Assembly: GCA_034440455.1 (NCBI GenBank)
Contig: JAWXCB010000066.1
Span: 2,807-66,806, forward strand
DNA length: 64,000 nt
Reading direction: 5' to 3'
DNA from: Chitinophagales bacterium
GTDB taxonomy: Bacteria; Bacteroidota; Bacteroidia; Chitinophagales; CAIOSU01
The notes under the pieces were generated by a model, which was not told the origin of the DNA, searched no databases, and worked only from the letters and a program-made list of their open reading frames with translations. How positions within the stretch are numbered: the first letter of the stretch is position 1; the number at the start of each line of letters is the position of its first letter. The position numbers and the translations under genes are program-made. Positions 3,274 to 64,000 of the stretch are shown here, piece after piece.

Positions 3274-3365
3274 CTCCCCTCTCCTTTGGAGCTTGCCTAT
3301 GCACACATTTATTTAGGAACTAATTTGTGCAAGTGACCAGCCTTTGCAGAGGGGCGAGGTGAGGC
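3274..3365. repeat. CCCCTCTCC...GGTGAGGC family repeat, copy split by a nested ~50-nt hairpin insert
   Basis: CTCCCCTCTCCTTTGGAG ... GCAGAGGGGCGAGGTGAGGC. The halves match the compact copy at 17499-17534. Confidence 0.6.
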
Positions 3366-5321: not shown

Positions 5322-5728
5322 ACGAGCGCCTCATTGACACCGATATCCTGTCGTATTATATAAAAGGGAACAGCGCGGTTGTTCAGCGATTCAGCAACTA
5401 CCTGAATCACTTCCCCGCCATTAAAATCAGCATCATCACTTATTATGAAATCAAAAGCGGATTGCAGTTCAAAGGCGTCAAAAAACAACTCAGCGATTTT
5501 GAAAAATTCAGCGGCAAATGTGAAATCATGTCGCTTACAGAGATAAGCGCTGATGTTGCCGCCTTCTGGTATGCGCTGCTAAGAAAAAAAGGAACTCTGG
5601 TGGATGATATTGATTTATTGATTGCCGGAATCGCAATAGAGAACGAGCTAAGGTTAGTTACGAACAATGAAAAACATTTCGCCAATATCAGCGAATTTGA
5701 AATCGAAAACTGGGCTATGCCGCAATAA
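5318..5728 (+). CDS. vapC: PIN-domain ribonuclease toxin (VapC-like)
   Basis: 136 aa. Acidic PIN pattern: LIDTDIL at the N-terminus, DDIDLLIAGIA, and TNNEKHF near the C-terminus. Confidence 0.8.
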   Translation: MNERLIDTDILSYYIKGNSAVVQRFSNYLNHFPAIKISIITYYEIKSGLQFKGVKKQLSDFEKFSGKCEIMSLTEISADVAAFWYALLRKKGTLVDDIDLLIAGIAIENELRLVTNNEKHFANISEFEIENWAMPQ

Positions 5729-5750: not shown

Positions 5751-6692
5751 ATGGCAAAAGCACTCCTGAAAAAAGTGAAAGTAAATCCCGAAACGCTTTC
5801 GCATATCGCCATGAACGGAAAGCAGAGCAACGGTGCGCGCCTGAAGGTGCAGAAGACGTATAAGATTTACATTGACGGGAAATTTCCGCGCACCGAGTCG
5901 GGCAGGTACTACAAGCTGAAAAATAAAAAGGGCGCAACTATCGCGAACATCTGCCGCTCATCGCGAAAAGATTTTCGTGATGCGGTTGTCGCTGCGCGAA
6001 ATGCGTTTGAAAAATGGGCATCGCTCACCGCGTTTAATCGCGGGCAGATTATTTATCGCATTGCCGAAATGCTCGAAGGCAGAAGTGCGCAGTTTGTTTC
6101 GGAAATGATACAACAGGGATATGGCATTGACGAAGCCACGCGCGAAGTGGCGCTCGCCATTGACAGGCTGGTGTATTACGCAGGCTGGGCTGACAAGTAT
6201 CAGCAAATCTTCAGCAGCGTGAACCCCGTGAATGCCTCTTACTTCAACTTTTCCCTCTGCGAACCCACCGGTGTGGTGAGCATCATTGCTCCCGAAGAAA
6301 ATACATTGGCGGGATTGATTTCAACGGTGATTCCAGTTATCGCAGGTGGAAATACGTGCATCGCGCTTGCTTCCGAATCACTGCCGCTCTGCGCGGTAAC
6401 GCTGGCAGAAGTGCTCCATTCATCCGATGTTCCGGGTGGCGTGGTAAATATTTTAACCGGATTCAGGAAAGAGTTGCTCGGGCATTTCGCTTCGCACATG
6501 GATGTGAACGCAATCGTGTTTTGCGGTGAGGATAAAAAAGAAATCAAAGCCGTGCAGGAAAACGCAACGCTAAATGTGAAGCGCGTCATCTTGCGCAGAA
6601 ATGCCGAATGGCTGAATGAGTCCTACCAAAATCCTTACTTCATTCTCGACACGCAGGAAACCAAAACCACCTGGCATCCCGTTGGAGTCTGA
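5751..6692 (+). CDS. aldehyde-dehydrogenase-family protein lacking the catalytic domain
   Basis: 313 aa. It aligns by eye to the NAD-binding half of the upstream ALDH (YYAGWADK..., GGVVNILTG) and to the extreme C-terminal strand. It has no ELGGK segment and no catalytic Cys segment. Confidence 0.7.
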   Translation: MAKALLKKVKVNPETLSHIAMNGKQSNGARLKVQKTYKIYIDGKFPRTESGRYYKLKNKKGATIANICRSSRKDFRDAVVAARNAFEKWASLTAFNRGQIIYRIAEMLEGRSAQFVSEMIQQGYGIDEATREVALAIDRLVYYAGWADKYQQIFSSVNPVNASYFNFSLCEPTGVVSIIAPEENTLAGLISTVIPVIAGGNTCIALASESLPLCAVTLAEVLHSSDVPGGVVNILTGFRKELLGHFASHMDVNAIVFCGEDKKEIKAVQENATLNVKRVILRRNAEWLNESYQNPYFILDTQETKTTWHPVGV

Positions 6693-11286: not shown

Positions 11287-11325
11287 TTAGTGCAGGTGTT
11301 CATTGAGAATATCTCAATTCATAGT

Positions 11326-11397
11326 GTCATGGCGGACTTGTTCCGCCATCCCCATGTAAATAATAAAGAGGGGATGCCGGAACAAGTCCGGCATGAC
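11326..11397. repeat. dual-hairpin inverted-repeat element (GTCATGSCGGACTTGTTCCGSCATCCCC family), clean copy
   Basis: GTCATGGCGGACTTGTTCCGCCATCCCC, a 16-nt spacer, then GGGGATGCCGGAACAAGTCCGGCATGAC. Confidence 0.8.
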
Positions 11398-11424
11398 AAT
11401 TTCACGACCTAATTTTGCCCCAGC

Positions 11425-12995: not shown

Positions 12996-13094
12996 AAAAT
13001 GAATTTCATTTTTTTGGGGTTCAAAAGTAGGGTTTTGGGTTGATTTCGGGTGAGGAATAACAACAGGTCGATCTTCCGAGGCAATAAAAAAAGA

Positions 13095-13523
13095 GGCTGC
13101 ATGACTGTAAGCCGGGTTCTGTTTCCCTGATTGCTCAGGGCTTCTATCATTTATCTGGGGCTGTAATCACTTACAGCCTCTATCAGCCAACCCCCTCCGG
13201 CATCCGCTTGCGCGAATTTGAGCGAGCCGCTCTGCCTGCCGAAACAGACCGGAGTATATTTGGCTTTTCAACTTGCAAGGTTTACCCCACCAGTGTGTTA
13301 CCACAACGATGCGTGAGCTTTTACCTCACGTTTTCACCTTTACCCACCGAAGCTTTAGCGAAGGCGGGCTTTACCAGCCTCGCAAAACTTCAACAGGCAG
13401 TTATTCTCTGTGGCACTCTCTGTATTCCGCTTGCGCGAAACCCCTGCCGTTAGCAGGTGCAACGCTCTTTGTTGCCCGGACTTTCCTCCCCGATTGCTCA
13501 AGGCGATAGAACATCATGCAGCC
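13095..13523 (-). ncRNA. rnpB: RNase P RNA (bacterial type A)
   Basis: The minus strand reads GGAGGAAAGTCCGGGC (plus 13474-13489) and ACAGAACCCGGCTTA (plus 13108-13122), the universal CR-I and CR-V motifs. A 10-bp P1 helix pairs GGCUGCAUGA (5' end, 13523-13514) with UCAUGCAGCC (3' end, 13104-13095). There are two GCAA-tetraloop hairpins. The ends are approximate. Confidence 0.85.
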
Positions 13524-14124: not shown

Positions 14125-15216
14125 ATGCTGGGTTATCATTTTTCCAAATTCATCCCCAATCCCGAAGGACAATCACCATTTGACAAGCTGTTGAATTTGT
14201 TCAAAGAGATGCTCGTTTACACATCAGGCGATGTGCAGGAAGCGCTTAGTTGGCTCAATGAAGTGGACAAAGAATACAAGCTCACCAAGGATGAGTATGG
14301 TATGGGTGACTTTATTGAAGATTTGAAGAAGGAGGGCTACATCAAAGAAAACGAGCAGGGTGAGTTTAAAATCACTTCTAAAACTGAGCAGACGATTCGC
14401 CAGAGTGCGCTCGAAGATGTGTTCGGCAAACTCCGCAAAACACGCAAAGGAAGTCACAGCACACCTTATACAGGTGTAGGCGATGAACAGGGCACTGACC
14501 GCAGACCATACGCATTTGGTGATTCGCTTGACCAGATTTCCGCTACCGACAGCATTCGCAATGCGCAAATCAATCAGGGCATCGGCAGCTTTTCGCTTAC
14601 TGAAAACGATTTGGAAATCATCGAAAAGGAAAATAAGTCGCAGGTGAGTACAGTGATGATGATTGACATTTCGCACAGCATGATTCTCTATGGCGAAGAC
14701 AGGATTACTCCTGCGAAAAAAGTGGCGATGGCATTAGCGGAGTTGATTACAACTAAATATCAAAAAGACACACTCGACATCATCGTGTTTGGTGATGATG
14801 CCTGGCAAATCGAAATCAAGGACTTGCCGTATTTACAAGTGGGTCCCTACCACACTAACACAGTTGCTGGTCTTGAACTCGCCATGGATATTTTGCGCAG
14901 GCGCAAAAATCCAAACAAGCAAATCTTCATGGTGACGGATGGCAAGCCCACGTGTATGAAAGAAGGTGGGCGTTATTATAAAAACAGTTTTGGTCTTGAC
15001 CGCAAAATCATCAACAAAACATTGACGCTCGCCAAATCATGCAGGCGTTTAAAGATGCCTATCACTACCTTCATGCTTGCCCGTGACCCGCATTTACAAC
15101 GGTTTGTGCGCGAGTTCACGGAAACCAACCACGGCAGGGCGTTCTATACCAGCCTGAAAGGGTTAGGTGAATATATTTTTGAGGATTACGAAAGGAATAA
15201 AAAGAAATGGATTTGA
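14125..15216 (+). CDS. VWA-domain protein (CoxE-like)
   Basis: MIDAS DxSxS motif in MMIDISHSM, and a later FMVTDGKPT segment. Confidence 0.75.
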   Translation: MLGYHFSKFIPNPEGQSPFDKLLNLFKEMLVYTSGDVQEALSWLNEVDKEYKLTKDEYGMGDFIEDLKKEGYIKENEQGEFKITSKTEQTIRQSALEDVFGKLRKTRKGSHSTPYTGVGDEQGTDRRPYAFGDSLDQISATDSIRNAQINQGIGSFSLTENDLEIIEKENKSQVSTVMMIDISHSMILYGEDRITPAKKVAMALAELITTKYQKDTLDIIVFGDDAWQIEIKDLPYLQVGPYHTNTVAGLELAMDILRRRKNPNKQIFMVTDGKPTCMKEGGRYYKNSFGLDRKIINKTLTLAKSCRRLKMPITTFMLARDPHLQRFVREFTETNHGRAFYTSLKGLGEYIFEDYERNKKKWI

Positions 15217-15363
15217 TGATATGCTAATGTGCCGATATGCCGATGCAGCGATTCGGAAAGTCCCCCTTGCGCACAGGCATTGCGTATATGCGAAGGGGGC
15301 TGCGCAAGCCACGAGCGTTTGCGGGGGGATGATGATTCGATAATTAAAAATGAAATAACTGAA

Positions 15364-16896
15364 ATGGAAAAAACTGTAATACAAAAACTGACTTCAATCA
15401 AAACTCTCGGAGAGTTGAAACGCTCAGGCTATCGCACGCGCACGATTAAAGATGAACTGCGTGAAAATCTTATCACGCATCTCAAAGGGAAGAAGCCGAT
15501 GTTTAGGGGTGTGCTCGGTTTCGACACGACTGTTATTCCGGATATTCAGCGCGCACTGCTTTCGCGCCACAATATGATTTTGCTCGGCTTGCGCGGACAA
15601 GCAAAGACACGCATCGCGCGCCAAATGACGCATCTGCTTGATGAGTATATTCCGGTAGTGGAAGGCTCCGAATTGAATGACGACCCGTTTCATCCCATTT
15701 CAAAATATGCCCGCGACCTTCTTGCTGAGAAAGGAGATGAAACGCCAATCGCGTGGCTGCACCGCGAGGAGCGTTATGCTGAAAAGCTCGCCACGCCAGA
15801 TGTTTCCGTGGCTGATTTAATAGGTGATGTTGACCCGATTCGCGCTGCGAATTTGAAACTCTCTTATGCCGATGAGCGTGTGATTCACTACGGATTGATT
15901 CCCCGTTCGAACCGCTGCATTTTTGTGATTAATGAATTGCCTGATTTGCAGCCGCGCATCCAGGTTTCGTTGTTTAACATTTTGCAGGAAGGCGATATTC
16001 AGATTCGTGGATTCAAGTTGCGCTTGCCGTTAGACATTCAGTTTGTATTCACTGCCAATCCGGAAGATTACACCAATCGCGGTTCAATAGTTACTCCGCT
16101 GAAAGACCGTATCGAAAGCCAAATCCTTACGCACTACCCAAAAGACATTGAAACCTCAAAGAAGATTACTGTTCAGGAAGTGCGCTCGCACGAAGCGCAG
16201 AAGTCTGCGGTGAAATACAACGATTTGATTTTAAACCTGAATGAGCAAATTGCAGTTGAAGCACGCAAAAGCGAATACGTGGATAAGAAAAGCGGAGTGT
16301 CAGCACGGCTCACCATTTCTTCTTTTGAAAATCTCCTGAGCGCAGCCGAAAGGCGTACGTTGCTGAACAATGAAGCAGAAACATTTGTGCGCATGAGTGA
16401 TTTCTGGGGCGTGGTTCCTGCTATCACAGGGAAGATTGAACTCGTATATGAAGGCGAGCAGGAAGGACCGATGATAGTGGCGCAAAATCTTATCAGCAAA
16501 GCAATCAGGACATTGTTTGTTCAGCATTTTCCCGACCCGGGAAAATTGAAAAAACAAAAACAGGAGAATCCCTATCGGAAAATTGGAGATTGGTTTGGCT
16601 CAGGAAATTCGATTGATTTAATGATGGACATTCCGGCAAAGCAATATGCCGCTGAGTTGAAAAAAGTGGTAGGGCTTGAAGAAGTCGTTAACAAATTTTA
16701 TCCCGATACGAAAGGCGATGAGAAACTTTTTTTGATGGAGTTTGTGTTGCATGGCTTGGCAGAACATTCGTTGTTAAGTAAATACATGCTGGAAGCGGGC
16801 ATACAATTTAAAGATGTGCTGGGCGCTATGTTCACCGGAAAGACAACTGATTTTGATAAGGAAGATGATTTTAATGATGAAGAGTTCAATAATTAA
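15364..16896 (+). CDS. ChlI/BchI/MoxR-like AAA+ ATPase (often annotated as magnesium chelatase or sigma-54-interaction-domain protein)
   Basis: LLGLRGQAKTR (deviant Walker A), CIFVINELPDL (Walker B-like) and FVFTANPEDYTNRGSIVTPLKDR. ATG 15364 is preferred; the ORF-track extension from 15229 runs through a hairpin-rich spacer. Confidence 0.7.
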   Translation: MEKTVIQKLTSIKTLGELKRSGYRTRTIKDELRENLITHLKGKKPMFRGVLGFDTTVIPDIQRALLSRHNMILLGLRGQAKTRIARQMTHLLDEYIPVVEGSELNDDPFHPISKYARDLLAEKGDETPIAWLHREERYAEKLATPDVSVADLIGDVDPIRAANLKLSYADERVIHYGLIPRSNRCIFVINELPDLQPRIQVSLFNILQEGDIQIRGFKLRLPLDIQFVFTANPEDYTNRGSIVTPLKDRIESQILTHYPKDIETSKKITVQEVRSHEAQKSAVKYNDLILNLNEQIAVEARKSEYVDKKSGVSARLTISSFENLLSAAERRTLLNNEAETFVRMSDFWGVVPAITGKIELVYEGEQEGPMIVAQNLISKAIRTLFVQHFPDPGKLKKQKQENPYRKIGDWFGSGNSIDLMMDIPAKQYAAELKKVVGLEEVVNKFYPDTKGDEKLFLMEFVLHGLAEHSLLSKYMLEAGIQFKDVLGAMFTGKTTDFDKEDDFNDEEFNN

Positions 16897-17410
16897 AACA
16901 GGGACATTGTTTGTTGATAGAGGGTTGATGCCTTTTCTATTTTTATTACTCACATTCAGTTTCGTGTCATCCGCTCAGATTGTCCCTGTTCTTACCTTCG
17001 ATGTATTTCAAAAGCATCTTCAGCCCGCCAATGATAACGACACTGTTTATGTCATCAACTTCTGGGCTACATGGTGCAAGCCGTGTGTTGAAGAACTGCC
17101 TGCATTTGAAAAGCTCAATGAAACCTACGCAAATCAAAAAGTAAAAGTGCTGCTCGTGAGCATTGATTTCAGAAGCCAGTATGAAAAGCAGGTTGTTCCG
17201 TTTGTACAAAAGAACAAACTCAAATCACAGGTCATGCTTATGGACGCGCAAGGCGATAACGATTTCATAGACAAAGTGAATCCAGCATGGCAGGGTACAA
17301 TTCCCGCAACGACTGTCATTCAGGCAAGTTCCAAGACAAATAAGTTCTACGAAAAGCAATTCACTTTCGAGGAATTGGAAAATATTATTCAACCACTTAT
17401 AAAAAAGTAA
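16874..17410 (+). CDS. TlpA-like thiol:disulfide oxidoreductase (thioredoxin fold)
   Basis: VINFWATWCKPCVEELP (WCxPC active site) and a signal peptide ending SSAQ. The start is ambiguous (16865, 16874, 16877 or 16928). Confidence 0.7.
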   Translation: MMKSSIIKTGTLFVDRGLMPFLFLLLTFSFVSSAQIVPVLTFDVFQKHLQPANDNDTVYVINFWATWCKPCVEELPAFEKLNETYANQKVKVLLVSIDFRSQYEKQVVPFVQKNKLKSQVMLMDAQGDNDFIDKVNPAWQGTIPATTVIQASSKTNKFYEKQFTFEELENIIQPLIKK

Positions 17411-17413
17411 ATC

Positions 17414-18079
17414 ATGAGATTAATCAAATCAACATTGTCATTTCTGACTGTTATCGTAGTAGCACTCTTTTCGTTTGGATTTATCAATCATGCAAGGACT
17501 CCCCTCTCCTTTGGAGAGGGTGCGCGGGTGAGGCAGCCCGGCTATAATGTTGGTGATTATGCAGCTGACTTCAAACTGAAAAACATTGACGACAAAATGG
17601 TTTCACTTGCAGATTATACAGAAGCCATAGGCTTTGTTGTTGTATTTACTTGTAATCATTGCCCCTATGCGAAGTTGTATGAAGACCGTCTTGTTGCGCT
17701 TGACAAGGTTTCCAAAAAGAAAGGTTATCCGGTTATTGCTATCAATCCGAATGATGCGGCAAGCCATCCTGAAGATTCATTTGACAACATGAAGAAACGC
17801 GCGAAAGACAAAGGCTTCACATTTCCGTATCTCGTTGACGAAACGCAGGAAGTAGCACAGGCTTTTGGCGCAGCAAAAACTCCGCATGTTTATCTCTTAC
17901 AAAAAGAAGAAGGCAAGTTGAAAGTCGTCTATATCGGTGCAATCGATGACGATACCGAAAACACGAAGAAAGATAAAGTGAAGTATGTAGAAAATGCGAT
18001 TGATGCAGTGGAGAAAGGAGAAAAACCGAATCCTGATTTTACAAAAGCTGTTGGATGTACGATTAAGTGGAAAAGCTGA
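17414..18079 (+). CDS. thioredoxin-fold protein, peroxiredoxin-like (PRX_like1-type, CxxC)
   Basis: Signal/anchor MRLIKSTLSFLTVIVVALFSFGF, then an AhpC/TSA-like fold with VVFTCNHCPYAK. It carries an in-frame repeat insertion (see findings). Confidence 0.75.
   Translation: MRLIKSTLSFLTVIVVALFSFGFINHARTPLSFGEGARVRQPGYNVGDYAADFKLKNIDDKMVSLADYTEAIGFVVVFTCNHCPYAKLYEDRLVALDKVSKKKGYPVIAINPNDAASHPEDSFDNMKKRAKDKGFTFPYLVDETQEVAQAFGAAKTPHVYLLQKEEGKLKVVYIGAIDDDTENTKKDKVKYVENAIDAVEKGEKPNPDFTKAVGCTIKWKS
17499..17534. repeat. CCCCTCTCC...GGTGAGGC family repeat, compact 36-nt copy inside a CDS
   Basis: CTCCCCTCTCCTTTGGAGAGGGTGCGCGGGTGAGGC, translated in frame as ..TPLSFGEGARVRQ.. Confidence 0.75.
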
Positions 18080-18098
18080 GATATATTTTTCAATTTGG

Positions 18099-18128
18099 AA
18101 AGCCTGCCGAACTCCGGCAGGCTTTTTC
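18099..18128 (+). terminator. rho-independent terminator
   Basis: AGCCTGCCG (18101-18109) / CGGCAGGCT (18115-18123) stem followed by TTTTT. Confidence 0.6.
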
Positions 18129-18165
18129 ATTTCATTGAAACGTAAAGCTATTTTTGCCACCGCCA

Positions 18166-19191
18166 ATGACTGCCATTTCAAAAAAGAAGAAACACTTTCT
18201 TATTAACGAACAATTACGGGGGTATCTGAAAAAATACGACCGTGAATCAAAACTGCCCGTGAGCTACAATGATTTGCTGCGCTACAACGAAACTGTGCCG
18301 CACCGCGATAAGAGCGGGAAAGAAACGCTGTGGGAAACGGTGATTTACGACCGCTCCATGACAGATGAGTTGAACAAGGGGCTAACGATGATTTATTCCA
18401 TCCTGAAGTCGGATGGAGATACGGATGTTTTGGAGCACCTTTATGTTTCGCGCATTGACTATTGCACCTTTGGGAATTCAAATCCGTTTCGTGTTCGCAT
18501 TGTCAACCTGTTTAATGACAACTATGATTATTTCTATGTAAAGAAAGATGACGCTTCGCGTGTTTATGGGCTTGAATTAGAGCATATCCTTTCTCCCAAC
18601 CGCATCAATTATTTTGTGGACGATGACACGCTGATTGAAGAACACATTCCCGGCATTCCCGGTAATGACTTTATTGCGGGTTATCTAAAAAAACCAGAAT
18701 GCAATAAAGTGCGCATCGCCAAAGAATTTGTGAAATTCAACGAGCGCTGCTTTGTGCGGCTGCTGGGCGACATGCGTTCCTATAATTATGTCGTTGACAT
18801 CACGCCCGATTTTGAGGATGAGCAATACCGCATTCGCCCGATTGATTTCGACCAGCAATCTTATGAAGGGAAGAAAACGATGTATCTCCCGCAGTTTTTC
18901 AAAGAAAACAACGCGGTGGTCAACCTGTGCATGGAATTGATGACTCCCGAAACATTCAGCCAATACCGCAACGAGGAAAGAACGTTGATTGCGCACCGCT
19001 TAAAAGCCGAACGTACCCGTTTTGAAGAACTGCTGGCATGCATGAAAAATGATACGATTTCACTTGCTGACAAAGAAGAACAACTCAAACAGGAACTTGC
19101 AAAGCACCACAACGACCCCGCCTTCAAAGCTTGTAAGAACATGGGCGAAATTGTGAGCTATCACCTTGAAGTGGTGCTTGCGGGTAAATAG
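18166..19191 (+). CDS. hypothetical protein with kinase-like catalytic-loop pattern
   Basis: 341-aa cytoplasmic ORF from ATG 18166 (the ORF track starts at TTG 18154). LLGDMRSYNYVVD ... IRPIDFDQ resembles the D-x4-N catalytic loop plus metal-binding Asp of atypical kinases. No family assigned. Confidence 0.5.
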   Translation: MTAISKKKKHFLINEQLRGYLKKYDRESKLPVSYNDLLRYNETVPHRDKSGKETLWETVIYDRSMTDELNKGLTMIYSILKSDGDTDVLEHLYVSRIDYCTFGNSNPFRVRIVNLFNDNYDYFYVKKDDASRVYGLELEHILSPNRINYFVDDDTLIEEHIPGIPGNDFIAGYLKKPECNKVRIAKEFVKFNERCFVRLLGDMRSYNYVVDITPDFEDEQYRIRPIDFDQQSYEGKKTMYLPQFFKENNAVVNLCMELMTPETFSQYRNEERTLIAHRLKAERTRFEELLACMKNDTISLADKEEQLKQELAKHHNDPAFKACKNMGEIVSYHLEVVLAGK

Positions 19192-26776: not shown

Positions 26777-28029
26777 ATTCAATTAAACTCATTCCGATTG
26801 AGCAAATCCGAAAAGCGCATGAGCGGCTGTGCAAAATTGTAACGCGCACCCCGCTCGTGTACAGTGCGAATCTCTCGCAAGAGTATGGATGCAATGTTTA
26901 TCTGAAACGCGAGGATTTACAGGTGGTACGCTCTTACAAATTGCGTGGCGCTTACAACAAAATTTCAACCTTACCGAAAGAAGTAACTGCAAAAGGTGTG
27001 GTGTGTGCAAGCGCAGGTAATCATGCGCAGGGCGTTGCATACTCGTGCAACGCGCTCGGCATTCACGGAAAGATTTACATGCCGAATCCCACCACCAAAC
27101 AGAAAGTGGACAAGGTGAAGATGTTCGGGAAAGAATTTGTCGAAGTGATTCTCACGGGCGATACCTACGATGATGCGTATCGCGAAGCAATGGAGGATTG
27201 CAATCGCAATGGCAAAACATTCATCCATCCTTTTGAGGATGAAAAAGTGATGGAAGGGCAGGGCACCGTTGGCTTAGAAATTCTCGAAGACATCCAGGTG
27301 CCGATTGATTATTTGTTTGTGCCGATTGGCGGGGGAGGCTTGGCATCGGGAACAGGAAGTTGTTTCAAACAATTAAGCCCTGATACAAAAATCATCGGGG
27401 TGGAACCGGCAGGCGCGCCTGCAATGGAGAAATCGCTGAAGCTGGGCAACGTGGTAACGCTCGAGGAGATTGATAGCTTCGTAGATGGCGCAGCAGTAAA
27501 GAGAGTAGGGGAGAAGACATTTGAAATCTGTAAAGAAGTGCTGGATGATATGGTGCTTGTTCCTGAGGGAAAAGTTTGCACAATTATCTTGCGTCTGTAT
27601 AACGAAGAAGGAATTGTGGTAGAGCCGGCTGGCGCGCTCACTGTCAGTGCGCTGGGTTTTTGCAAAGAAAAAATAAAAGGGAAGAATGTAGTGTGCGTGG
27701 TGAGCGGTGGCAACAACGACATCATGCGTACTGCTGAAATCAAAGAGCGCTCGATGCTCTATGAAGGCTTGAAGCATTACTTCATTATCCGCTTTCCGCA
27801 ACGTGCGGGCGCATTGCGTGAGTTTTTAAATCATGTGCTCAGTCCAACAGACGACATCTGCCATTTTGAATACACCAAAAAGAACAGCCGTGAAAACGGT
27901 CCCGCTTTAATCGGCATTGAATTGGTAAAGCGCGATGACTATGACGGATTGATTGAGCGAATGAAAAAGTATCACATCAATTTCGAAGAGGTGAACAGTA
28001 ACCCGAATCTGTTTAATTATTTTGTGTAG
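26773..28029 (+). CDS. ilvA: threonine ammonia-lyase (threonine dehydratase)
   Basis: 418 aa. PLP-lysine motif VVRSYKLRGAYN, SGGNND, and a C-terminal ACT-like regulatory domain. The GTG start overlaps the upstream stop (GTGA). Confidence 0.9.
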   Translation: MNSIKLIPIEQIRKAHERLCKIVTRTPLVYSANLSQEYGCNVYLKREDLQVVRSYKLRGAYNKISTLPKEVTAKGVVCASAGNHAQGVAYSCNALGIHGKIYMPNPTTKQKVDKVKMFGKEFVEVILTGDTYDDAYREAMEDCNRNGKTFIHPFEDEKVMEGQGTVGLEILEDIQVPIDYLFVPIGGGGLASGTGSCFKQLSPDTKIIGVEPAGAPAMEKSLKLGNVVTLEEIDSFVDGAAVKRVGEKTFEICKEVLDDMVLVPEGKVCTIILRLYNEEGIVVEPAGALTVSALGFCKEKIKGKNVVCVVSGGNNDIMRTAEIKERSMLYEGLKHYFIIRFPQRAGALREFLNHVLSPTDDICHFEYTKKNSRENGPALIGIELVKRDDYDGLIERMKKYHINFEEVNSNPNLFNYFV

Positions 28030-28030
28030 C

Positions 28031-28110
28031 ACGATGCTGCACTTGTTCCGGCATCCTCTGATTTTTAGTTGTAATGGCTTCAGGGGTTTGTGGAACAAGT
28101 CCGCAATGAC
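28031..28110. repeat. dual-hairpin element, degenerate copy
   Basis: ...GATGCTGCACTTGTTCCGGCATCCTC, a spacer, then GGGGTTTGTGGAACAAGTCCGCAATGAC. Confidence 0.6.
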
Positions 28111-28119
28111 AAACAAATC

Positions 28120-29046
28120 CTACGGCTTCATAATCTTTGCATACTTACCGCTGTTCACAGGGTCGCATTTGTAGAGCAACTGCACTGCGTTTGCTTTCTC
28201 ATTTGGTGGCGCAGCGGCAAAAATATTAATCAGCTCTTCTGACTTTGCATTGAAAATAAGCCGGATAAAAGGGGAATTGGGGTATTCCGCTGCAACTTCA
28301 CCAATCTGGCGCAAGCAATTCAACACCACCTGCCTGCCATTGTTCATGTTATCATACATCACATCCATGCCGCTGCGGTGATAGAGATACATGGATTCAC
28401 GAATAGGGCTGAGGCGTGTGTTCAGCAAATTGTCAATTATCCAGTAGCGATTATTCACGTTTTCAAACGGTCGCCAGCCGGGAGCAATATCACTGCTTAA
28501 GTTGCTGGGAATACTATTTACTACTGCTTGCGCTTTTTGATAGTAAGGTGTGCCCGCATTCAGCGAGTAGGTGTCATAATCAAGTCCGATAATGAGATAG
28601 GCATAGTAGGCAAGCATCGCAGTGAGGTTCGAGCGGAAATCATTATCGCTGAACTCCAATTGCTCAAATTCTTTGTATTCAAAAATCCAGTCCTTATCGG
28701 CATAGTTGAAAACTACCGAATTGTAATCGCTGTTAAACACCGGACGCGATGACTGAATGCTCACCTGTGCGCGAAAAATATTTGCGCTCGATTCTTCGGT
28801 AACATTGATAAAGATGCTGCACTCAATTTTTTCTTCCAACTTGAAAACATCACTCGTCCACTTGCGGGTGTTCATGAATTCAAAAATGGCGGTCTCAAGC
28901 GTTTGAAAAACCCTGACATCCGTGGTTTGCAGCTTCTGCGCAATAATCTCCACCGTGCATTTCAATTCCTGAGCGCGAATTGTTGCAGACGAAAATAAAA
29001 ACAGTACAACTGCAAGGAGTTTTAAGGGAAGAAATTTTCGCGTCAA
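28120..29046 (-). CDS. DUF4835-family protein (T9SS-associated, PorD-like)
   Basis: Signal peptide ...LLAVVLFLFSSATIRAQ, then ELKCTVEIIAQKLQTTDVRVFQTLE... The position after coaBC matches the conserved Bacteroidetes synteny. The TTG start at 29046 is preferred because the ORF-track N-terminus (to 29103) translates a stutter repeat. Confidence 0.6.
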   Translation of the reverse strand: MTRKFLPLKLLAVVLFLFSSATIRAQELKCTVEIIAQKLQTTDVRVFQTLETAIFEFMNTRKWTSDVFKLEEKIECSIFINVTEESSANIFRAQVSIQSSRPVFNSDYNSVVFNYADKDWIFEYKEFEQLEFSDNDFRSNLTAMLAYYAYLIIGLDYDTYSLNAGTPYYQKAQAVVNSIPSNLSSDIAPGWRPFENVNNRYWIIDNLLNTRLSPIRESMYLYHRSGMDVMYDNMNNGRQVVLNCLRQIGEVAAEYPNSPFIRLIFNAKSEELINIFAAAPPNEKANAVQLLYKCDPVNSGKYAKIMKP

Positions 29047-29079
29047 CTTCAAACTATAAACTTCAAACTGTAAACTCGC
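29044..29079. repeat. ACTTCAAAC stutter repeat
   Basis: CAACTTCAAACTATAAACTTCAAACTGTAAACTCGC. The same word family occurs at 30314-30401. Confidence 0.55.
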
Positions 29080-29095
29080 AAAGCCCGTGCGCTGA

Positions 29096-30313
29096 TTAAG
29101 CATTCATCATATTTATTACTTCGTCAATAATGTCTCTTGCAACATCGGACTTGCCTTTAAGAGAGTAGGAGTGTTCATCTCCTTTTTTGTTGATGACGGT
29201 GATTTTATTGGTATCAAATCCAAACCCTGCGCCTTTGTCGCGTAACGAGTTCAGCACAATCATGTCGAGGTTTTTCTTTTTCAGTTTGGCGCGGGCGTTG
29301 TTCAGTTCATCTTCTGTTTCAAGCGCGAAGCCGACTAAAAACTGTTTCTTGGTTTTCTTCTTTCCTAAGCTTTCCAAAATGTCAGGATTTTTCACCAATT
29401 GGATAAGCAGAGAATCATCAGCCTTTTTGATTTTTTGATTGGATACCGAAACAGGTCTGTAATCCGAAACTGCCCCTGCAAGAATCGCCACGTCTGCTTT
29501 TGGAAATGCCTTCACCGAAGCGTCATACATTTCCTGCGCTGTGGTAACGGGAATAATTTTAATTCCTTTCACTTGTGGGTTGAATGATGTAGGACCTTTC
29601 ACCACCGTAACCTGCGCGCCCAATGCGGCTAAACCTTCGGCAAGCGCAAGCCCCATTTTTCCGGTGGAGTGATTGCTGATAAAACGAACAGGGTCAATTG
29701 GCTCAACGGTGGGACCAGCGGTAATTAATATCTGTTTGCCTACAATTTTTTTATAGGTGTCCTCTCTTTTTTTTTGAACTGCAAAATGCTTCTCAAGCCA
29801 GTCGAAAATTTCTTCCGGCTCTGCCATTCTTCCCTCGCCCACTAAGCCGCTTGCCAACTCACCGGCATTCACGGAGATTACTTCATTTCCGAATCGCTTC
29901 AGCGCATTCAAATTATATTGCGTTGCAGGATGCTTCCACATGTCTAAGTCCATTGCGGGAGCAAGCAGGACTAAACACTTTGCTGACAGATAAGTGGCAG
30001 CGAGCAGGTTATCGCACATCCCTGAAGCCAGCTTGGCAATGGTGTTTGCTGAAGCGGGCGCAATCAGAAAAACATCAGCCCACAAACCAAGCTCTACATG
30101 ACTGTTCCAGGTTTTGTCATCGCGGGTGAAAGAAGTAAGCACCGGGTTTTTTGAAAGCGTGGAGAAGGTAAGCGGGTCAACGAAATCATGAGCCGATTGC
30201 GTCATCACCACCTTCACTTCCGCGCCTGCCTTCACCAGCAACCGCACGAGAAAAGCGCTTTTGTATGCGGCAATGCTGCCACATACGCCTAAGAGTATTT
30301 TCTTTCCTTTCAT
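29096..30313 (-). CDS. coaBC: bifunctional phosphopantothenoylcysteine decarboxylase / phosphopantothenate-cysteine ligase
   Basis: 405 aa. Flavoprotein N-domain (ILLGVCGSIAAYK, PAMD..MW) and CoaB C-domain (ITAGPT.EPIDPVRFISNHSTGKMG). Confidence 0.92.
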   Translation of the reverse strand: MKGKKILLGVCGSIAAYKSAFLVRLLVKAGAEVKVVMTQSAHDFVDPLTFSTLSKNPVLTSFTRDDKTWNSHVELGLWADVFLIAPASANTIAKLASGMCDNLLAATYLSAKCLVLLAPAMDLDMWKHPATQYNLNALKRFGNEVISVNAGELASGLVGEGRMAEPEEIFDWLEKHFAVQKKREDTYKKIVGKQILITAGPTVEPIDPVRFISNHSTGKMGLALAEGLAALGAQVTVVKGPTSFNPQVKGIKIIPVTTAQEMYDASVKAFPKADVAILAGAVSDYRPVSVSNQKIKKADDSLLIQLVKNPDILESLGKKKTKKQFLVGFALETEDELNNARAKLKKKNLDMIVLNSLRDKGAGFGFDTNKITVINKKGDEHSYSLKGKSDVARDIIDEVINMMNA

Positions 30314-30401
30314 TGCTCAGTTTGAAGTTTGAAGTCTCAAGTTTGAAGTGAGTTCAAAGTTGCTCTAAAACTTCAAACCTCAAACTTTAACCTCTAAACT
30401 T
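30314..30401. repeat. inverted stutter repeat (GTTTGAAGT / ACTTCAAAC words)
   Basis: AGTTTGAAGTTTGAAGTCTCAAGTTTGAAGTGAG faces CTAAAACTTCAAACCTCAAACTTTAACCTCTAAACT, which gives a long imperfect hairpin between rpoZ and coaBC. Confidence 0.6.
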
Positions 30402-41192: not shown

Positions 41193-41210
41193 TGCTGCGT
41201 TTTTCCTTGA

Positions 41211-41286
41211 GTCATGCCGGACTTGTTGCGGCATCCCCACCAAAGGCGTCAATTTTAAGGAGATGGCGGAATAAATTCGCCATGAC
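41211..41286. repeat. dual-hairpin element
   Basis: GTCATGCCGGACTTGTTGCGGCATCCCC, a 20-nt spacer, then GGAGATGGCGGAATAAATTCGCCATGAC. Confidence 0.75.
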
Positions 41287-41292
41287 AAAAAC

Positions 41293-41898: not shown

Positions 41899-42765
41899 TT
41901 AAAATACGATGTAATCCTCGGGGTTCACAGGCGAGCCTTCATGCCACAGTTCAAAGTGCAAATGCGGACCTGTTGTCAACTCGCCACTGCTGCCGATAAT
42001 TGCTATTGCGTCACCGGCTTTCACGAAGTTACCTGTTTTCTTTAAAAGAACGGAGTTATGCTTATAGAAGGAAACTAAGTTGTACTCATGCTGAATGCCA
42101 ATGACATATCCTGTTTCCAGCGTCCATGTAGCAAGGATAACGTACCCGTCCATCGCGTTTTTAATCGGAACATCTACAGCAGCCACAATATCAACGCCAA
42201 AATGGTCTTCCTGCGCATTAAAGCCGGAAGTGATGTATCCTAAAAGGGGTGGAAAGAAATTCAACTGCGAAAGCGAGACTTCACCTTTCTTTTGCAGGTT
42301 TGAAAAACTGAGCGAATACCGCTGCTCTTGCTCCATCTCCTCGCGCAGCCGCAATTCTTCTTCTGAAACATTCTCCAGATTTATGGTGTCATAATATCCC
42401 GTTTTCCCGCTCACAATCTGCGCTGCCGTATCAATATTCCCAGTCAGGATATTTCGCATGTTGGTAATCCATAATTCCTGCTGTCGCACCACGCGTTGCA
42501 GCGAATCAGACCGCAATTCCATTTCTACTAAATCTTTTCGCAGATGCACATCGCCATAGCCGGGAATATATTCTTTAAGAGGAGTAAATACGACCAAAGA
42601 AAAGATGGCAGAAACAGTAATTACTAAAATGCTGCTGAACAGCACATACACATTAAACCGATTAAGCCGGAACGATGCGCGCTCTTCAAAGGTCTGGTCA
42701 TCAAGAATCACCAGGCGGTATCTGTTCCGCAACTTGTCCAAAAACCGTTTCTTTTGCTCGCTCAC
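41899..42765 (-). CDS. M23-family peptidoglycan metalloendopeptidase
   Basis: N-terminal membrane anchor and C-terminal LytM motifs (HFGVDI..., GSSGELTTGPHLHFELW). Confidence 0.85.
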   Translation of the reverse strand: MSEQKKRFLDKLRNRYRLVILDDQTFEERASFRLNRFNVYVLFSSILVITVSAIFSLVVFTPLKEYIPGYGDVHLRKDLVEMELRSDSLQRVVRQQELWITNMRNILTGNIDTAAQIVSGKTGYYDTINLENVSEEELRLREEMEQEQRYSLSFSNLQKKGEVSLSQLNFFPPLLGYITSGFNAQEDHFGVDIVAAVDVPIKNAMDGYVILATWTLETGYVIGIQHEYNLVSFYKHNSVLLKKTGNFVKAGDAIAIIGSSGELTTGPHLHFELWHEGSPVNPEDYIVF

Positions 42766-42846: not shown

Positions 42847-45657
42847 GTGATCAAGGCAGCCAAAGTACCGTTTTTTTGGGCGATTTTCTTTGCCATTTTA
42901 ATTTCTGTAGGATGTTCCTCCGGGAAAAAGTCGCAAGACCCTTCCCTCGCTGGGCAGGTTTATCATGACATCACCGCCCGCAACAATGCCTACTTCAACG
43001 GCACGCAGAAAATAAAAACCATCCAGAAAAGCATCGAAACATCCTACCAGGATAATTTCGACACCATCCTTGTGTTGCGCACCAACCGCGATCCTGCTAT
43101 GGCAAAAACCTACGGCAGCGATTTGGATGAAGTGGTAAAGAAAGCCTCTGCCGCCATCAAGCGCCACGAACCCAGCAAATGGACGGACGATGCCTATCTG
43201 CTTGTGGGCAAATCTTATTTCCTCAAAGGCGATTATGACGCTGCGCTGGAAACATTCAAGTTCGTGAACACCACCTTCAAAGAAGAGTTGAAGAAATCAG
43301 AGAAGAAAAAAGAGGTGAAGAAAAAAAAGAAGAAAAAATCAAACAGTAAAAAGAAGAAGAGCAGCAAAAAGAAAAAGAAGAAGAAAAAATCAAGCAGCAA
43401 GAAAAATATTCCGATAAAGACAACAAGCACACAGCCGCAACCCACCGCCATAGCTAAAAAGCCCGCAGATGAAAAGAAGAAGTCAAGCTCAGGTTTGTTG
43501 AAGCCTGTGCCCGTGCGCCCGCAGGCATGGGTTTGGCTGGTTGACACTTACACTGAAATAGACAAGTTTAAAGAAGCCGATGCGGTAGTTACGTTTATCG
43601 AAGCCGATGAAGAGTTTCCGAAAAAACTGAAGCGCGAGTTTGAAATATCAAAAGCGCATCTGGCAGTCAAACGCGGCAACTTGGAAAGTGCCATTGAGCC
43701 GCTCACGCAGGCAATTGAATTTACAAAGAAGAAAAAATACAAAGCGCGTTATTACTATGTGCTTGCGCAGATTTATGAAAACACTGCTCAATATCCCAAC
43801 GCGATTACAAATTATCAGGAGGTGTTGAAGAATCGTCCCAAGTTTGATTTGGAGTTTAATGCCAAAATCAGCATCGCGCGTATTGCAAGAAAAGACCGGT
43901 CGCTTTCAACAAATGAAATCACCGTGCTGCTCAAGAAGCTGCTGAAGGATGCCAAGAATCAGGACTTCTTTGACCAGGTGTATTATTCGCTTGCCGAGTT
44001 TGCCCTAAGCCGAGGCAATAAAGAGGAAGCGCTTGATTACCTTGAAAAGTCAGTGAAAAGCTCAACAACCAACGTGCTGCAAAAAGCGCTTTCCTACAAT
44101 AAGATGACAGAGATTTATTTCAACGACCAGTTGTATGTAAAAGCGCAGCCATACTCCGATAGCACGATGGCGATTCTCCCTACCGATTATAAGGGCTTTG
44201 ATGCCATTGCGCAGCGCGATGAAGTGCTGCGCGAGTTGGTGCGCCACTTGCAAACCATTGAAGAGCAGGATAGCATGTTGCGCATCGCCTCCATGACGGA
44301 AGACGAGCGTGAAAAGCTTGTGGATGATATCATCCGCAAGAAAGAAAAAGAGTTGGAAAGAAATGATATTGCTAACGACCCTTCGCAAATTGACCCGATG
44401 GTAAATGATAAGACGAAGCGGGAAGACCCCAATGCAACAGCTTCCACATCAGGATGGTATTTCTATAACGTCAATGCAAAATCAACAGGATTTAACAACT
44501 TCATCAAGCGCTGGGGCAACCGCAATTTAGAAGACGACTGGAGGCGCAACAATAAAAGTTCAGCCGCCTTTGATGATCAGGCAAGTTTCGATGATGACAG
44601 CTTGCAGCAAACAGCGAGCCTCTCCGATGCAAACCTTGATAAAGAAGCATTGCTGAAAGCCATCCCGCTCACCAATGAACAGGTGCAGAGATCCAATGCT
44701 TATATCATTGATGCGCTCTATCGCCTTGGAAATATTTACCGCATTGATTTGAAGAACTACAAAAAAGCGGTGGAGGCTTTTGAAGAATTGCTCAAGCGTT
44801 TCCCCGGCAACAAACATGAGCCGGAAACTTATTACAGCCTTTATCTGCTTCATGCGGAAATGGGCAATGCAGGCAAAGCTGTAGATTACAAAAACAGCTT
44901 GCTCAACAAATATCCCAACAGCCGCTATGCGCAGTATTTATTAAACCCTGATTTGCTTGAAACAGAAAAACGCAAAGACAGAAAGTTGCAGGATTATTAC
45001 AGTGGCGCGTATGAAATGTATCTGAATAATCAGCTTGCAGAAGCACTCGTTACCATCAATCAGGCTGACAGCATTTTTCCGCGTAATGAACTGCAATCAA
45101 AGTTTGCGCTGCTTGAAGCGCAGGTGATTGCAAAAACGCAGGATGTGCCAAAATATCTTGATGCGCTGCAAAGCGTGATTGACGATTTTCCCACCACACC
45201 GGAGCGCAACAAAGCCGAAGAAATTCTCAACTACCTGAAGGTGAAGGAAGATTCTTCTTTCCTTATGCAAATCAACATCAGCGAATACAAATATGATGTG
45301 GATGCCACGCACTTCTTCGTTGCATCTTACAATACCGATTCGGTGAACACAAATAATTTAATCAACGCAGTTGCTTCCTACAACGACCTCAACCGCAGCC
45401 TCGAAGATTTAAAAATCAACTCCGTTGCGCTGGATGATAAACATGCGTTTCTTGTGGTGAAGAGTTTCAAGAACATGAAAACCTCCATCAATTATTACAA
45501 TGCCATTTCCGCCAGCGCAGATACGTTTAAAGATTTCCCACCCGGCACGCTTGAGTTCTGCGTTATCTCCGATGTCAACTTCAACAAAGTAATCATGCAC
45601 TCCGAAATCGAATCCTATTTCAGATTTTTTGAAGCGCGTTACATCACGAATCAATAA
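42847..45657 (+). CDS. large TPR lipoprotein, PorW/SprE-like (tentative)
   Basis: GTG start, lipobox LISVGCSSG, the N-terminal YHDITARNNAYFNG pattern, multiple TPR-like repeats, 936 aa. It contains a Lys/Ser low-complexity insert. Confidence 0.55.
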   Translation: MIKAAKVPFFWAIFFAILISVGCSSGKKSQDPSLAGQVYHDITARNNAYFNGTQKIKTIQKSIETSYQDNFDTILVLRTNRDPAMAKTYGSDLDEVVKKASAAIKRHEPSKWTDDAYLLVGKSYFLKGDYDAALETFKFVNTTFKEELKKSEKKKEVKKKKKKKSNSKKKKSSKKKKKKKKSSSKKNIPIKTTSTQPQPTAIAKKPADEKKKSSSGLLKPVPVRPQAWVWLVDTYTEIDKFKEADAVVTFIEADEEFPKKLKREFEISKAHLAVKRGNLESAIEPLTQAIEFTKKKKYKARYYYVLAQIYENTAQYPNAITNYQEVLKNRPKFDLEFNAKISIARIARKDRSLSTNEITVLLKKLLKDAKNQDFFDQVYYSLAEFALSRGNKEEALDYLEKSVKSSTTNVLQKALSYNKMTEIYFNDQLYVKAQPYSDSTMAILPTDYKGFDAIAQRDEVLRELVRHLQTIEEQDSMLRIASMTEDEREKLVDDIIRKKEKELERNDIANDPSQIDPMVNDKTKREDPNATASTSGWYFYNVNAKSTGFNNFIKRWGNRNLEDDWRRNNKSSAAFDDQASFDDDSLQQTASLSDANLDKEALLKAIPLTNEQVQRSNAYIIDALYRLGNIYRIDLKNYKKAVEAFEELLKRFPGNKHEPETYYSLYLLHAEMGNAGKAVDYKNSLLNKYPNSRYAQYLLNPDLLETEKRKDRKLQDYYSGAYEMYLNNQLAEALVTINQADSIFPRNELQSKFALLEAQVIAKTQDVPKYLDALQSVIDDFPTTPERNKAEEILNYLKVKEDSSFLMQINISEYKYDVDATHFFVASYNTDSVNTNNLINAVASYNDLNRSLEDLKINSVALDDKHAFLVVKSFKNMKTSINYYNAISASADTFKDFPPGTLEFCVISDVNFNKVIMHSEIESYFRFFEARYITNQ

Positions 45658-45703: not shown

Positions 45704-45737
45704 CTCCCTCGCCCTTGGGAGAGGGGCGGGGTGAGGC
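45704..45737. repeat. CCCTC...GGTGAGGC family repeat flanked by a 10-bp direct repeat
   Basis: CTCCCTCGCCCTTGGGAGAGGGGCGGGGTGAGGC. AAGCGTTACA occurs at 45687-45696 and again at 45747-45756. Confidence 0.7.
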
Positions 45738-54572: not shown

Positions 54573-54605
54573 TCACGTAAAGGAGCGAAGGCGCAAAGCG
54601 GAAGT
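54573..54605. repeat. GCAAAG-word repeat
   Basis: TCACGTAAAGGAGCGAAGGCGCAAAGCGGAAGT. A related inverted copy lies at 55907-55934. Confidence 0.4.
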
Positions 54606-54676
54606 GTCCTGCCGGACTTGTTCCGGCATCCGCAAATTATTCTGATGAGGGGATGGCGGAACGAGTCCGCCATGAC
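54606..54676. repeat. dual-hairpin element
   Basis: GTCCTGCCGGACTTGTTCCGGCATCCGC, a 15-nt spacer, then GGGGATGGCGGAACGAGTCCGCCATGAC. Confidence 0.75.
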
Positions 54677-54682
54677 AACGAA

Positions 54683-63294: not shown

Positions 63295-64000
63295 AGAGTA
63301 AAACTGCTCGGATTCCCTTTAGGAGCGGGGTGAGGCTTTCAGCCGGCATCATCGGCAGCGGAGGCTACACAGGTGGTGAGTTGATTCGCTTGCTGGTAAA
63401 TCATCCGTCTGTTGAAATTGCTTTTGCGCATAGTAAAAGCAATGCGGGTGAATTTATTTACAAGGTGCATACTGACTTGCTTGGAGAAACCGATTTGAAA
63501 TTCACCAACAAAATTGGAAGCGATATTGATGTTTTATTTCTCTGCACGAGTCATAACGATTCAAGGAAATTTCTGGACGCAAATTCTATTTCTCACAAAA
63601 CAAAAATTATTGACTTGAGCCAGGATTTCCGGCTGAAGAAAAATAACGGAATTAAAGGGAGAGAATTTATCTACGGTTTGCCGGAATTGAATCGCGGTGA
63701 AATAAAAAAGTCAAACAGCATTGCCAATCCCGGATGCTTTGCGACTTGCATTCAATTGGCTTTGCTTCCGCTTGCGAAACAAAAATTATTAAACGGAGAA
63801 GTTCATGTTTCTGCAACAACCGGCTCAACCGGTGCAGGACAAGCGCCAAGCGAAACCACGCATTTCAGTTGGCGGCAAAATAATCTCTCTGTTTACAAAG
63901 CTTTCGAGCATCAGCATTTAAATGAGATTGGCGAATCGCTTAAACAACTTCAAAAGAATTTTGAGTGTGAAATCAACTTCATTCCGCATCGCGGAAGTTT
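63291..64000 (+). CDS. argC: N-acetyl-gamma-glutamyl-phosphate reductase (partial; runs off the window)
   Basis: GIIGSGGYTGGELIRLL Rossmann start and NPGCFATCIQLAL (catalytic Cys). The start is either GTG 63291 (overlapping the argG stop) or GTG 63330 (inside the repeat). There is no stop before the window end. Confidence 0.9.
   Translation, partial: MKSKTARIPFRSGVRLSAGIIGSGGYTGGELIRLLVNHPSVEIAFAHSKSNAGEFIYKVHTDLLGETDLKFTNKIGSDIDVLFLCTSHNDSRKFLDANSISHKTKIIDLSQDFRLKKNNGIKGREFIYGLPELNRGEIKKSNSIANPGCFATCIQLALLPLAKQKLLNGEVHVSATTGSTGAGQAPSETTHFSWRQNNLSVYKAFEHQHLNEIGESLKQLQKNFECEINFIPHRGS
63313..63336. repeat. partial CCCTC...GGTGAGGC family repeat at the argG/argC junction
   Basis: TTCCCTTTAGGAGCGGGGTGAGGC. 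Confidence 0.5.

Follow-up and report, generated by a model that had tools for sequence, protein, structure and literature searches.

The BoxC repeat of Escherichia coli, renamed the PIT element and then 'TMECO' (Holder et al. 2015, PMC4666352), is a G/C-rich motif with the published family pattern CCCTCNCCC N3-6 GGGNGAGGG N3 GGGNGAGGG; 23 copies are known from E. coli K-12 and 3610 from a set of 262 proteobacterial genomes, and cyanobacteria are likewise rich in G/C-rich triplex motifs as a broader class (PMC4666352). The triplex forms in vitro, as seen by circular dichroism and nuclear magnetic resonance with E. coli oligonucleotides, and not detectably in vivo. The family has neither promoter nor terminator activity, no tie to known mobile elements and no known mechanism of mobility; it is linked to local sequence instability, and its K-12 copies are 'always located intergenically' (PMC4666352). 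The Rickettsia palindromic elements (RPEs), by origin other elements, go in frame into unrelated protein genes, adding loop or surface stretches to the products (Ogata et al. 2000, 2002; PMC10969869). Both the repeat family and in-frame translated repeats as a phenomenon are already known. Here we describe a BoxC/PIT/TMECO element within a 64,000-nucleotide stretch of contig JAWXCB010000066.1 from a Chitinophagales bacterium (hereafter, the window), where it lies inside a gene for an exported thioredoxin-fold oxidoreductase, and we conclude that it is very probably a tolerated in-frame passenger encoding a disordered linker.

A BoxC/PIT/TMECO element inside a thioredoxin-fold gene

The 36-mer CTCCCCTCTCCTTTGGAGAGGGTGCGCGGGTGAGGC is found on the + strand at 17499-17534, inside the open reading frame (ORF) 17414-18079 as the initial annotation had it, and is unique at three or fewer mismatches, with 0 occurrences expected by chance. 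Read directly, the copy forms triads of the allowed types (G*G.C, A*A.T, T*A.T) at 8/8 positions of a class II purine-motif intrastrand triplex. A scan with our own triad-based script, written after the published ITxF criteria, scores it as a 9-nt stem with one mismatch; an earlier strict regular expression misses the in-gene copy. Within the window, the same scan picks out two G/C-rich class II motifs whose stems reach 8 nt or more (17502-17534 and 45706-45736), against 0 in 60 Markov-shuffled, composition-matched windows. The copy is two substitutions away from the subfamily consensus GGACTCCCCTCTCCTTTGGAGAGGGGGCGGGGGTGAGGC, which we read from intergenic copies in related genomes. Its RNA hairpin has 8 bp, and the 47-nt segment around it has a minimum free energy of -21.7 kcal/mol. 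A G-quadruplex reading was dropped, as the in-gene copy has two GGG runs only, giving two tetrads at best, and the published biophysics favours a triplex. At the gathering threshold, Rfam reports no RNA family over the element anywhere in a scan of the whole window; its sole match there is the RNase P RNA of bacterial class A (13092-13522, -, 235 bits).

The element is not confined to this lineage. An exact search of one genome per species with its 3' 19-mer GGAGAGGGGCGGGGTGAGG hit at least 119 contigs, and the matches listed span Enterobacteriaceae, Alpha-, Beta- and Gammaproteobacteria, Acidobacteriota, Verrucomicrobiota, Myxococcota, Chloroflexota, Planctomycetota, Bacteroidota, Gastranaerophilales and others. 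Nearly all of the matches listed have the full architecture, (C)TCCCTCTCC(C), a 3-8-nt loop and (G)GGAGAGGGGCGGGGTGAGG(G), and many of the cross-phylum matches fit the published pattern exactly. The in-gene copy fits it in a register shifted by one base and with a 5-nt second loop; the intergenic copy at 45706-45737 fits except for a 2-nt first loop and the final base, and is two substitutions and two one-base gaps away from E. coli K-12 TMECO no. 1. Because of this near-identity to the E. coli element and the occurrence in many phyla, we assign the repeat to the known and nearly universal BoxC/PIT/TMECO family of G/C-rich class II intrastrand triplex motifs. The repeat family of the initial annotation is thus real, dispersed and multi-copy, with four copies in the window and more in related contigs, including at contig ends, but it is not a local one.

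The host gene starts at an ATG 3 nt past the stop codon of a TlpA-like gene. Its product is identical to a public protein (P0001) recorded as 'thioredoxin family protein [Chitinophagales bacterium]'; residues 46-184 match the Pfam families AhpC-TSA (1e-19) and Redoxin, and NCBIfam gives a weak match to ResA-type thiol-disulfide oxidoreductases. As had been annotated, the repeat falls between the hydrophobic N-terminus and the conserved domain, where the protein reads ..TPLSFGEGARVRQ.. ahead of PGYNVGDY. The AlphaFold2 model (mean predicted local distance difference test score, pLDDT, 86.6) has a helix at residues 3-20, a pLDDT of about 48 over residues 21-40 in 10-residue block averages (below 50 for residues 24-33), and values above 90 from about residue 44 to the end. 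On this confidence pattern, the insert is predicted to sit in a disordered tether that joins the export signal to the thioredoxin fold. The surrounding gene order recurs: in the window (14125-19191) and in loci L001, L002, L003, L206 and L208, genes for a VWA-like protein, an AAA_5 ATPase, a TlpA-like thioredoxin and the thioredoxin-fold protein follow one another, and in most of these loci the next gene encodes a 341-345-aa protein without a Pfam match. The two thiol-disulfide oxidoreductase genes of the string are always neighbours and tightly coupled.

Alignment with 25 homologues reveals a clean gap at this junction, with homologous coding sequence to either side of it. In the nearest orthologues (P0002 and P0005-P0012; 201-202 aa), which share 88-89% identity with the window protein over the mature domain, SFIN is followed directly by PGYNVGDY; the window protein reads GFIN-HARTPLSFGEGARVRQ-PGYNVGDY, and its signal peptide is about 4 residues longer than theirs. 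The distance from Met1 to the conserved G-Y-x-V-G-D is usually 19-23 residues among roughly 180 homologues and 42 here. In DNA, the empty sites read ATCAAC followed by CCCGGCTAT (L204) and ATCAAT followed by CCGGGTTAC (L205). Since the window gene has 48 nt more than these, the gap is one of 16 residues, not the 12 that the initial annotation had expected. Nor is the element exactly 12 codons long in the sense of that annotation: its 36 nt are out of codon register, beginning at codon position 2 of T29 and finishing at position 1 of Q41, within an indel of 16 codons (48 nt). The filled junction of the window, set against the empty ones of L204 and L205, shows no duplicated bases, so there is no target-site duplication. 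The G+C content is 69% for the element, 65% for the whole insert and 40% for the rest of the gene. Further afield, 80 metagenomic orthologues of greater distance (63% identity at most) all lack the motif, a second search for homologues, with P0014 as the query, yielded no further insert-bearing orthologues, and a protein search with the N-terminal 68 residues alone returned no matches.

An assembly artefact was considered and dropped, because the identical protein is recorded on 20 contigs and the gene DNA with its element is identical in the six loci shown, from six different samples, apart from one silent-region single-nucleotide polymorphism in one of them.

Probable translation through the element

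Because the length of the insert is a multiple of three and two of the three sense frames of the element lack stop codons, translation from ATG 17414 could run through it. The frame is open from the ATG into the domain in all seven insert-bearing orthologues, although their insert lengths vary, and the first 25 codons encode a segment homologous to orthologous signal peptides. With or without the insert, every orthologous locus has its ATG 0-3 nt from the upstream stop or slightly overlapping it. Read-through would give peptides such as RTPLSFGEGAR and VRQPGYNVGDYAADFK.

The competing view is that the insertion split the gene, so that translation now starts at GTG 17528 and yields a signal-less cytoplasmic enzyme, the upstream signal-peptide ORF being a relic or a separate small peptide. 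The initial annotation had stated that no alternative start exists downstream of the signal; this holds for ATG and TTG but not for GTG, since a GTG, the sole start-type codon between the signal peptide and the domain, stands in frame within the repeat at 17528-17530, 4 codons ahead of the conserved PGYNVGD. The same GGG GTG AGG is in frame in L001 and L002, the truncated copy at 63313-63336 seems to provide argC with a GTG start in the same register, and gene callers easily prolong ORFs across stop-poor elements, as at the N-terminus of the TlpA-like gene of L001 and L002. However, all 7 insert bearers keep an open, hydrophobic and homologous 25-codon signal-peptide region despite 60-90% overall identity and differing insert lengths, the ATG of this region keeps its coupling to the upstream stop, and the GTG of the L003/L004 copy is out of frame; moreover, both the ResA/TlpA-type CxxC proteins and the partner co-transcribed upstream are exported. 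A split gene is therefore unlikely, and we infer that translation from ATG 17414 through the element is the better-supported reading.

Taken with the disorder prediction, read-through suggests the following course of events. As single-stranded DNA, the element can adopt the fold of a hairpin or of an intrastrand purine-motif triplex, and the copy would have arrived as part of the 48-nt insertion at the junction of export signal and folded domain, where the gene may be at its most permissive. The product would gain a 16-residue disordered tether rich in Pro, Ser, Gly, Glu and Arg, or a mature N-terminal extension, its catalytic domain unchanged. The peptide would have no function of its own, and in some lineages the copy would decay by mutation. 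With the element, the mRNA would also acquire an 8-bp G/C hairpin, and the gene a potential non-B DNA structure. The core of the initial annotation, a dispersed hairpin repeat lying in frame and translated as a linker between export signal and catalytic domain, is in this respect borne out.

The junction in other lineages

At this junction, six further orthologues have either the element itself or what is left of it (Table 1). The copy of L003/L004 (P0014) lies in another register, and in several lineages (L001, L002, L206, L207, L208) the stems have decayed. Because the encoded sequences vary freely, are read in different frames and accompany decayed stems, comparison of these orthologues supports an unconstrained peptide, that is, a tolerated passenger and not an exapted one. 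The earlier alternative of 'tolerated, or exapted' can accordingly be narrowed: the disordered site, the clean gap and the varying peptides all fit toleration, and the second half is not sustained.

Some points weigh against this account. Translation through the element is something that we infer; the in-frame GTG within it could give rise to a second, signal-less product; and the residues before the insert are INHA, which is not a classic AxA site, so that both a cleaved signal and an uncleaved anchor are possible. Moreover, the copies of the window and L003 are nearly intact (two and 0 changes from the consensus), whereas the others at the junction are decayed. Under pure neutrality, this mixture of intact and decayed copies would require recent or repeated insertion, gene conversion, or selection on DNA or RNA structure.

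Selection is the ground on which exaptation could be argued: the structure or linker would be useful, as an mRNA hairpin that pauses translation once the signal peptide emerges, as a triplex hotspot of mutation or recombination, or as a membrane spacer. The window copy retains its 8 triads and 8-bp hairpin and the L003 copy is consensus-perfect, both within coding sequence; the element occupies the same junction in two sub-clades, and a longer signal peptide is common to the insert-bearing alleles. Against this, the stems decay and the peptide changes freely in the five lineages named above, the element is missing from the closest relatives and from nearly all other orthologues, and the folding energy of the hairpin is unexceptional when set against shuffles (z = -1.4). 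Published tests of the family found neither promoter, terminator nor regulatory activity, nor did they find a stable triplex in vivo (PMC4666352). We regard exaptation as quite improbable and prefer a tolerated passenger.

The history of that passenger can be read in more than one way. In a bootstrapped neighbor-joining tree of the mature domain, the window protein pairs with the insert-free P0005 (86/100) and P0003 with P0004 (93/100); the clade-B insert bearers P0001, P0003 and P0004 come together in 2/100 replicates, and a second clade of P0014, P0040, P0025 and P0027, all with the insert, in 100/100. The locus of P0005, L204, is also the nearest genome in the flanks (78% upstream, 92% downstream), whereas over the first 60 nt of the gene the window is nearer to L002 (70%) than to L204 (58%). 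Insert bearers of both clades have in common GF-x-N-x-A-R/L-T before the insert, R-Q/L-A/P-V after it, and a longer signal peptide. Filled and empty genes are interleaved in the tree, so that a single old insertion may have been lost cleanly several times, or the 5' segment may have passed from one lineage to another. Alternatively, the junction may have been hit repeatedly, or 'refreshed' by gene conversion from copies elsewhere in the genome, which would explain the young-looking copies of the window and L003 beside decayed ones.

The shared flanks and longer signal peptides of the two clades, together with the interleaving of filled and empty genes, could also be taken to mean that nothing was inserted, the linker being ancestral, its likeness to the repeat due to chance or compositional convergence, and the short orthologues having lost it. 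This is hardly credible, since the segment matches dispersed intergenic copies of this and related genomes almost base for base, stands out as a GC island, and is lacking in all of the distant orthologues across Bacteroidota; an old insertion, moreover, remains the insertion of a repeat.

Coding copies are not restricted to this gene. In the low-GC contigs that the 19-mer search returned, the element is crossed by several long ORFs, three of them clearly real proteins. The MnmE of a Verrucomicrobiae genome (L087 4521-5975, -) has 22 extra residues relative to PDB 3geh, containing LTPPLSPQGGER; compared with E. coli HrpA 9ggr, the HrpA of a Methylophilaceae genome (L039 3955-7776, +) has 13 extra residues (TPSPLVGEGRGEG) and, in a second place, 7 more (PSPQPSPTRGEG region); and a GH106 (rhamnosidase-family) protein of Cyclobacteriaceae (L119 1851-4808, +) carries SLSFGEGRGEV within the span of its catalytic domain. 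Elsewhere (L038, L098, L109 and the TlpA-like gene of L001 and L002), what reads as an open frame across the element is probably 5' leader that gene callers absorbed. A literature search for the encoded peptides found no matches, and coding copies are unmentioned in the one detailed paper on the family (PMC4666352).

We offer as a tentative possibility that BoxC/PIT motifs are pan-bacterial, coding-compatible repeats which recurrently enter loops and linkers in frame, as in the thioredoxin-fold gene, HrpA, MnmE and GH106, and that the present junction was hit, or refreshed by conversion, more than once in related lineages. If true, this would point to homology-driven or site-directed spread of a family whose mode of dispersal has been obscure for 30 years. 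Measured against the literature searched, three observations appear to be new: a near-E. coli BoxC/TMECO sequence in a low-GC Bacteroidota genome and in many phyla; copies of the motif inside coding sequence, apparently translatable in frame in conserved proteins; and one junction occupied across related species with varied decay and frames, the nearest relative being cleanly empty. Filled and empty pairs in coding sequence offer base-exact boundaries (48 nt, no target duplication) and a built-in neutrality test, and could help explain how the family spreads. The case also carries a warning for annotation, as stop-poor elements lengthen ORFs and create segments of the 'PSPxGEGxGV' type in predicted proteins.

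Other copies and comparison with known repeats

Table 1. Features of the window, with the state of the host-gene junction in orthologous loci
Feature	Position	Strand	Sequence or reading	Basis or remark
Exported thioredoxin-fold thiol-disulfide oxidoreductase gene (ResA/TlpA-like, CNHC motif), 221 aa	17414..18079	+		ORF, Pfam, NCBIfam, identical public protein
Signal peptide/anchor coding region, residues 1-25	17414..17488	+	MRLIKSTLSFLTVIVVALFSFGFIN	Aligns with orthologue N-termini; AlphaFold helix 3-20
In-frame 48-nt insertion relative to nearest orthologues, H26-Q41	17489..17536	+	HARTPLSFGEGARVRQ	Empty sites L204/L205, protein alignment, GC 65%
In-gene repeat	17499..17534	+		Class II purine-motif intrastrand triplex motif, BoxC/PIT/TMECO type
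Pyrimidine stem (Y)	17502..17509	+	CCCTCTCC	Watson-Crick complement of 17513-17520
First loop	17510-17512	+	TTT	
Purine stem (R)	17513..17520	+	GGAGAGGG	
Second loop	17521-17525	+	TGCGC	
Mirror G-rich third stem (reverse-Hoogsteen strand)	17526..17533	+	GGGTGAGG	
In-frame GTG (V39) inside repeat	17528..17530	+	GTG	17528-17414 = 114 = 38 codons
Mature thioredoxin-fold domain, conserved	17537..18076	+	PGYNVGDY... to ...GCTIKWKS	Alignment; pLDDT >90 from about residue 44
Split copy, one element with 50-nt insert (3292-3341) in first loop	3274..3365	+		Upstream of aldehyde dehydrogenase gene
Canonical intergenic copy	45704..45737	+		Between TPR protein gene and PBP1A gene
Truncated copy	63313..63336	+		In 33-nt argG-argC spacer
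REPIN-like doublets	11318-11399, 28023-28112, 41203-41288, 54598-54678; weaker 29437-29468, 41950-41986			
Junction, L001 (P0003)			ACACCCTCTCCTTCGGAGACGGACGGGGTGAGGC, read TPSPSETDGVRQ	
Junction, L002 (P0004)			ACATCTTCTCCTCCGGAGAGTGGAGGGGTGAGGC, read TSSPPESGGVRL	
Junction, L003/L004 (P0014)			ACTCCCTCTCCTTCAGGAGAGGGGCGGGGTGAGGT, read TPSPSGEGRGEV	Consensus-perfect; other register
Junction, L207 (P0040)			read TPTHSGKERGQA	Decayed
Junction, L206 (P0025)			read LTSLFFSKGAGERL	Decayed
Junction, L208 (P0027)			read HPSSPGAHP	Short remnant

The initial annotation placed all other copies of the repeat between genes. Three such copies exist, all on the + strand (Table 1), but the truncated one overlaps the probable GTG start of argC at 63330. 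This GTG (63330-63332) is in frame with argC, 4 residues ahead of the Pfam Semialdhyde_dh (NAD-binding) domain, and shows that the internal GTG of the element can matter; judging from this arrangement, the repeat copy may supply the argC start codon, the alternative being an upstream GTG at 63291 that overlaps the argG stop. In the split copy, the 50-nt insert contains a hairpin and is flanked by 8-nt direct repeats, CTTTGGAG (3284-3291) and CTTTGCAG (3342-3349), which look like a target-site duplication. There are no other copies of this loop insert within the window. A motif copy with a different hairpin nested in the same loop is found in L001 (about 5360-5430, -).

Related contigs hold further copies, at about 5403 (-) in L001 and about 2776 (-) in L002, and at 6625 (+) at the contig end of L002. 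In both loci (L001 5380-5430, L002 2745-2790, -), the motif follows right after the stop of the AAA_5 gene and is inside the called N-terminus (MMKSLIIEPHPRPLSK...) of the TlpA-like gene upstream of the thioredoxin-fold gene; this ORF has probably been over-extended by gene callers through the stop-poor repeat. Two related Chitinophagaceae contigs terminate inside motif copies (L002 6609-6638, contig end; L069 1-19, contig start), suggesting that the repeat is frequent enough there to break short-read assemblies.

The window also contains a second, unrelated repeat family of inverted doublets, with a hairpin unit of about 29 nt (TGTCATGGCGGACTTGTTCCGCCATCCCC / GGGGATGCCGGAACAAGTCCGGCATGACA) and a REPIN-like layout. 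Short ACTTCAAACT-like runs occur in inverted orientation (29032-29076 and 30319-30400) on both sides of coaBC (29096-30313, -). An insertion sequence suspected from inverted repeats at about 29046-30349 was dropped, since what they enclose is coaBC. The gene of a 936-aa TPR protein (42847-45657) contains a low-complexity, lysine-rich stretch (AAGAAAAAGAAG... repeats, 43291-43406).

Among known systems, REP/REPIN-RAYT repeats and transposable elements of the miniature inverted-repeat type (MITEs) resemble the present element in being short, structured, dispersed, mostly intergenic and variable between strains. Unlike MITEs, it has no terminal inverted repeats or target-site duplication at the filled/empty boundary, and unlike REP repeats it has no GTAG-type REP head. 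No Y1_Tnp (RAYT) match was found among the window ORFs scanned with Pfam, a scan that was not exhaustive. The only Y1_Tnp match, a weak IS200-like one (2e-05), is to a 182-aa gene of the related contig L001 (1844-2392, -), which is located 3.6 kb upstream of the orthologous thioredoxin-fold gene and could be of the RAYT type.

The small dispersed repeats of cyanobacteria treated by Elhai et al. in 2008 are reportedly very short, nested in one another and occasionally inside genes. Their nesting is like that of the split copy at 3274-3365; the sequences and hosts differ, and we take the likeness as a lead only.

The RPEs come closer in behaviour, as palindromic dispersed repeats that lie in frame and are translated at permissive sites compatible with fold and function. 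They differ in being about 100-150 bp long, confined to Rickettsia and translated into a conserved peptide, whereas the present element has 34-37 nt, many phyla as hosts, several reading frames and an unrelated sequence.

The closest counterpart remains the BoxC/PIT/TMECO family (Bachellier et al. 1990s; Hoyne et al. 2000; Holder et al. 2015). The known family has been surveyed mainly in Proteobacteria and Cyanobacteria, whereas the host here is a Chitinophagales genome of 44% GC; the in-gene copy has a 5-nt second loop and 8-nt stems in place of 3 nt and 9-nt stems; and it lies inside a conserved ORF, whereas the E. coli K-12 copies are intergenic, the sole described feature from which it departs and not a structural criterion. 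In all else the two are alike, sharing the order CCCTC(N)CC(C) - short loop - GG(G)AGAGGG - short loop - GGGTGAGG(G), and occurring as dispersed, multi-copy repeats, sometimes in inverted pairs, whose copies are variably deleted or decayed.

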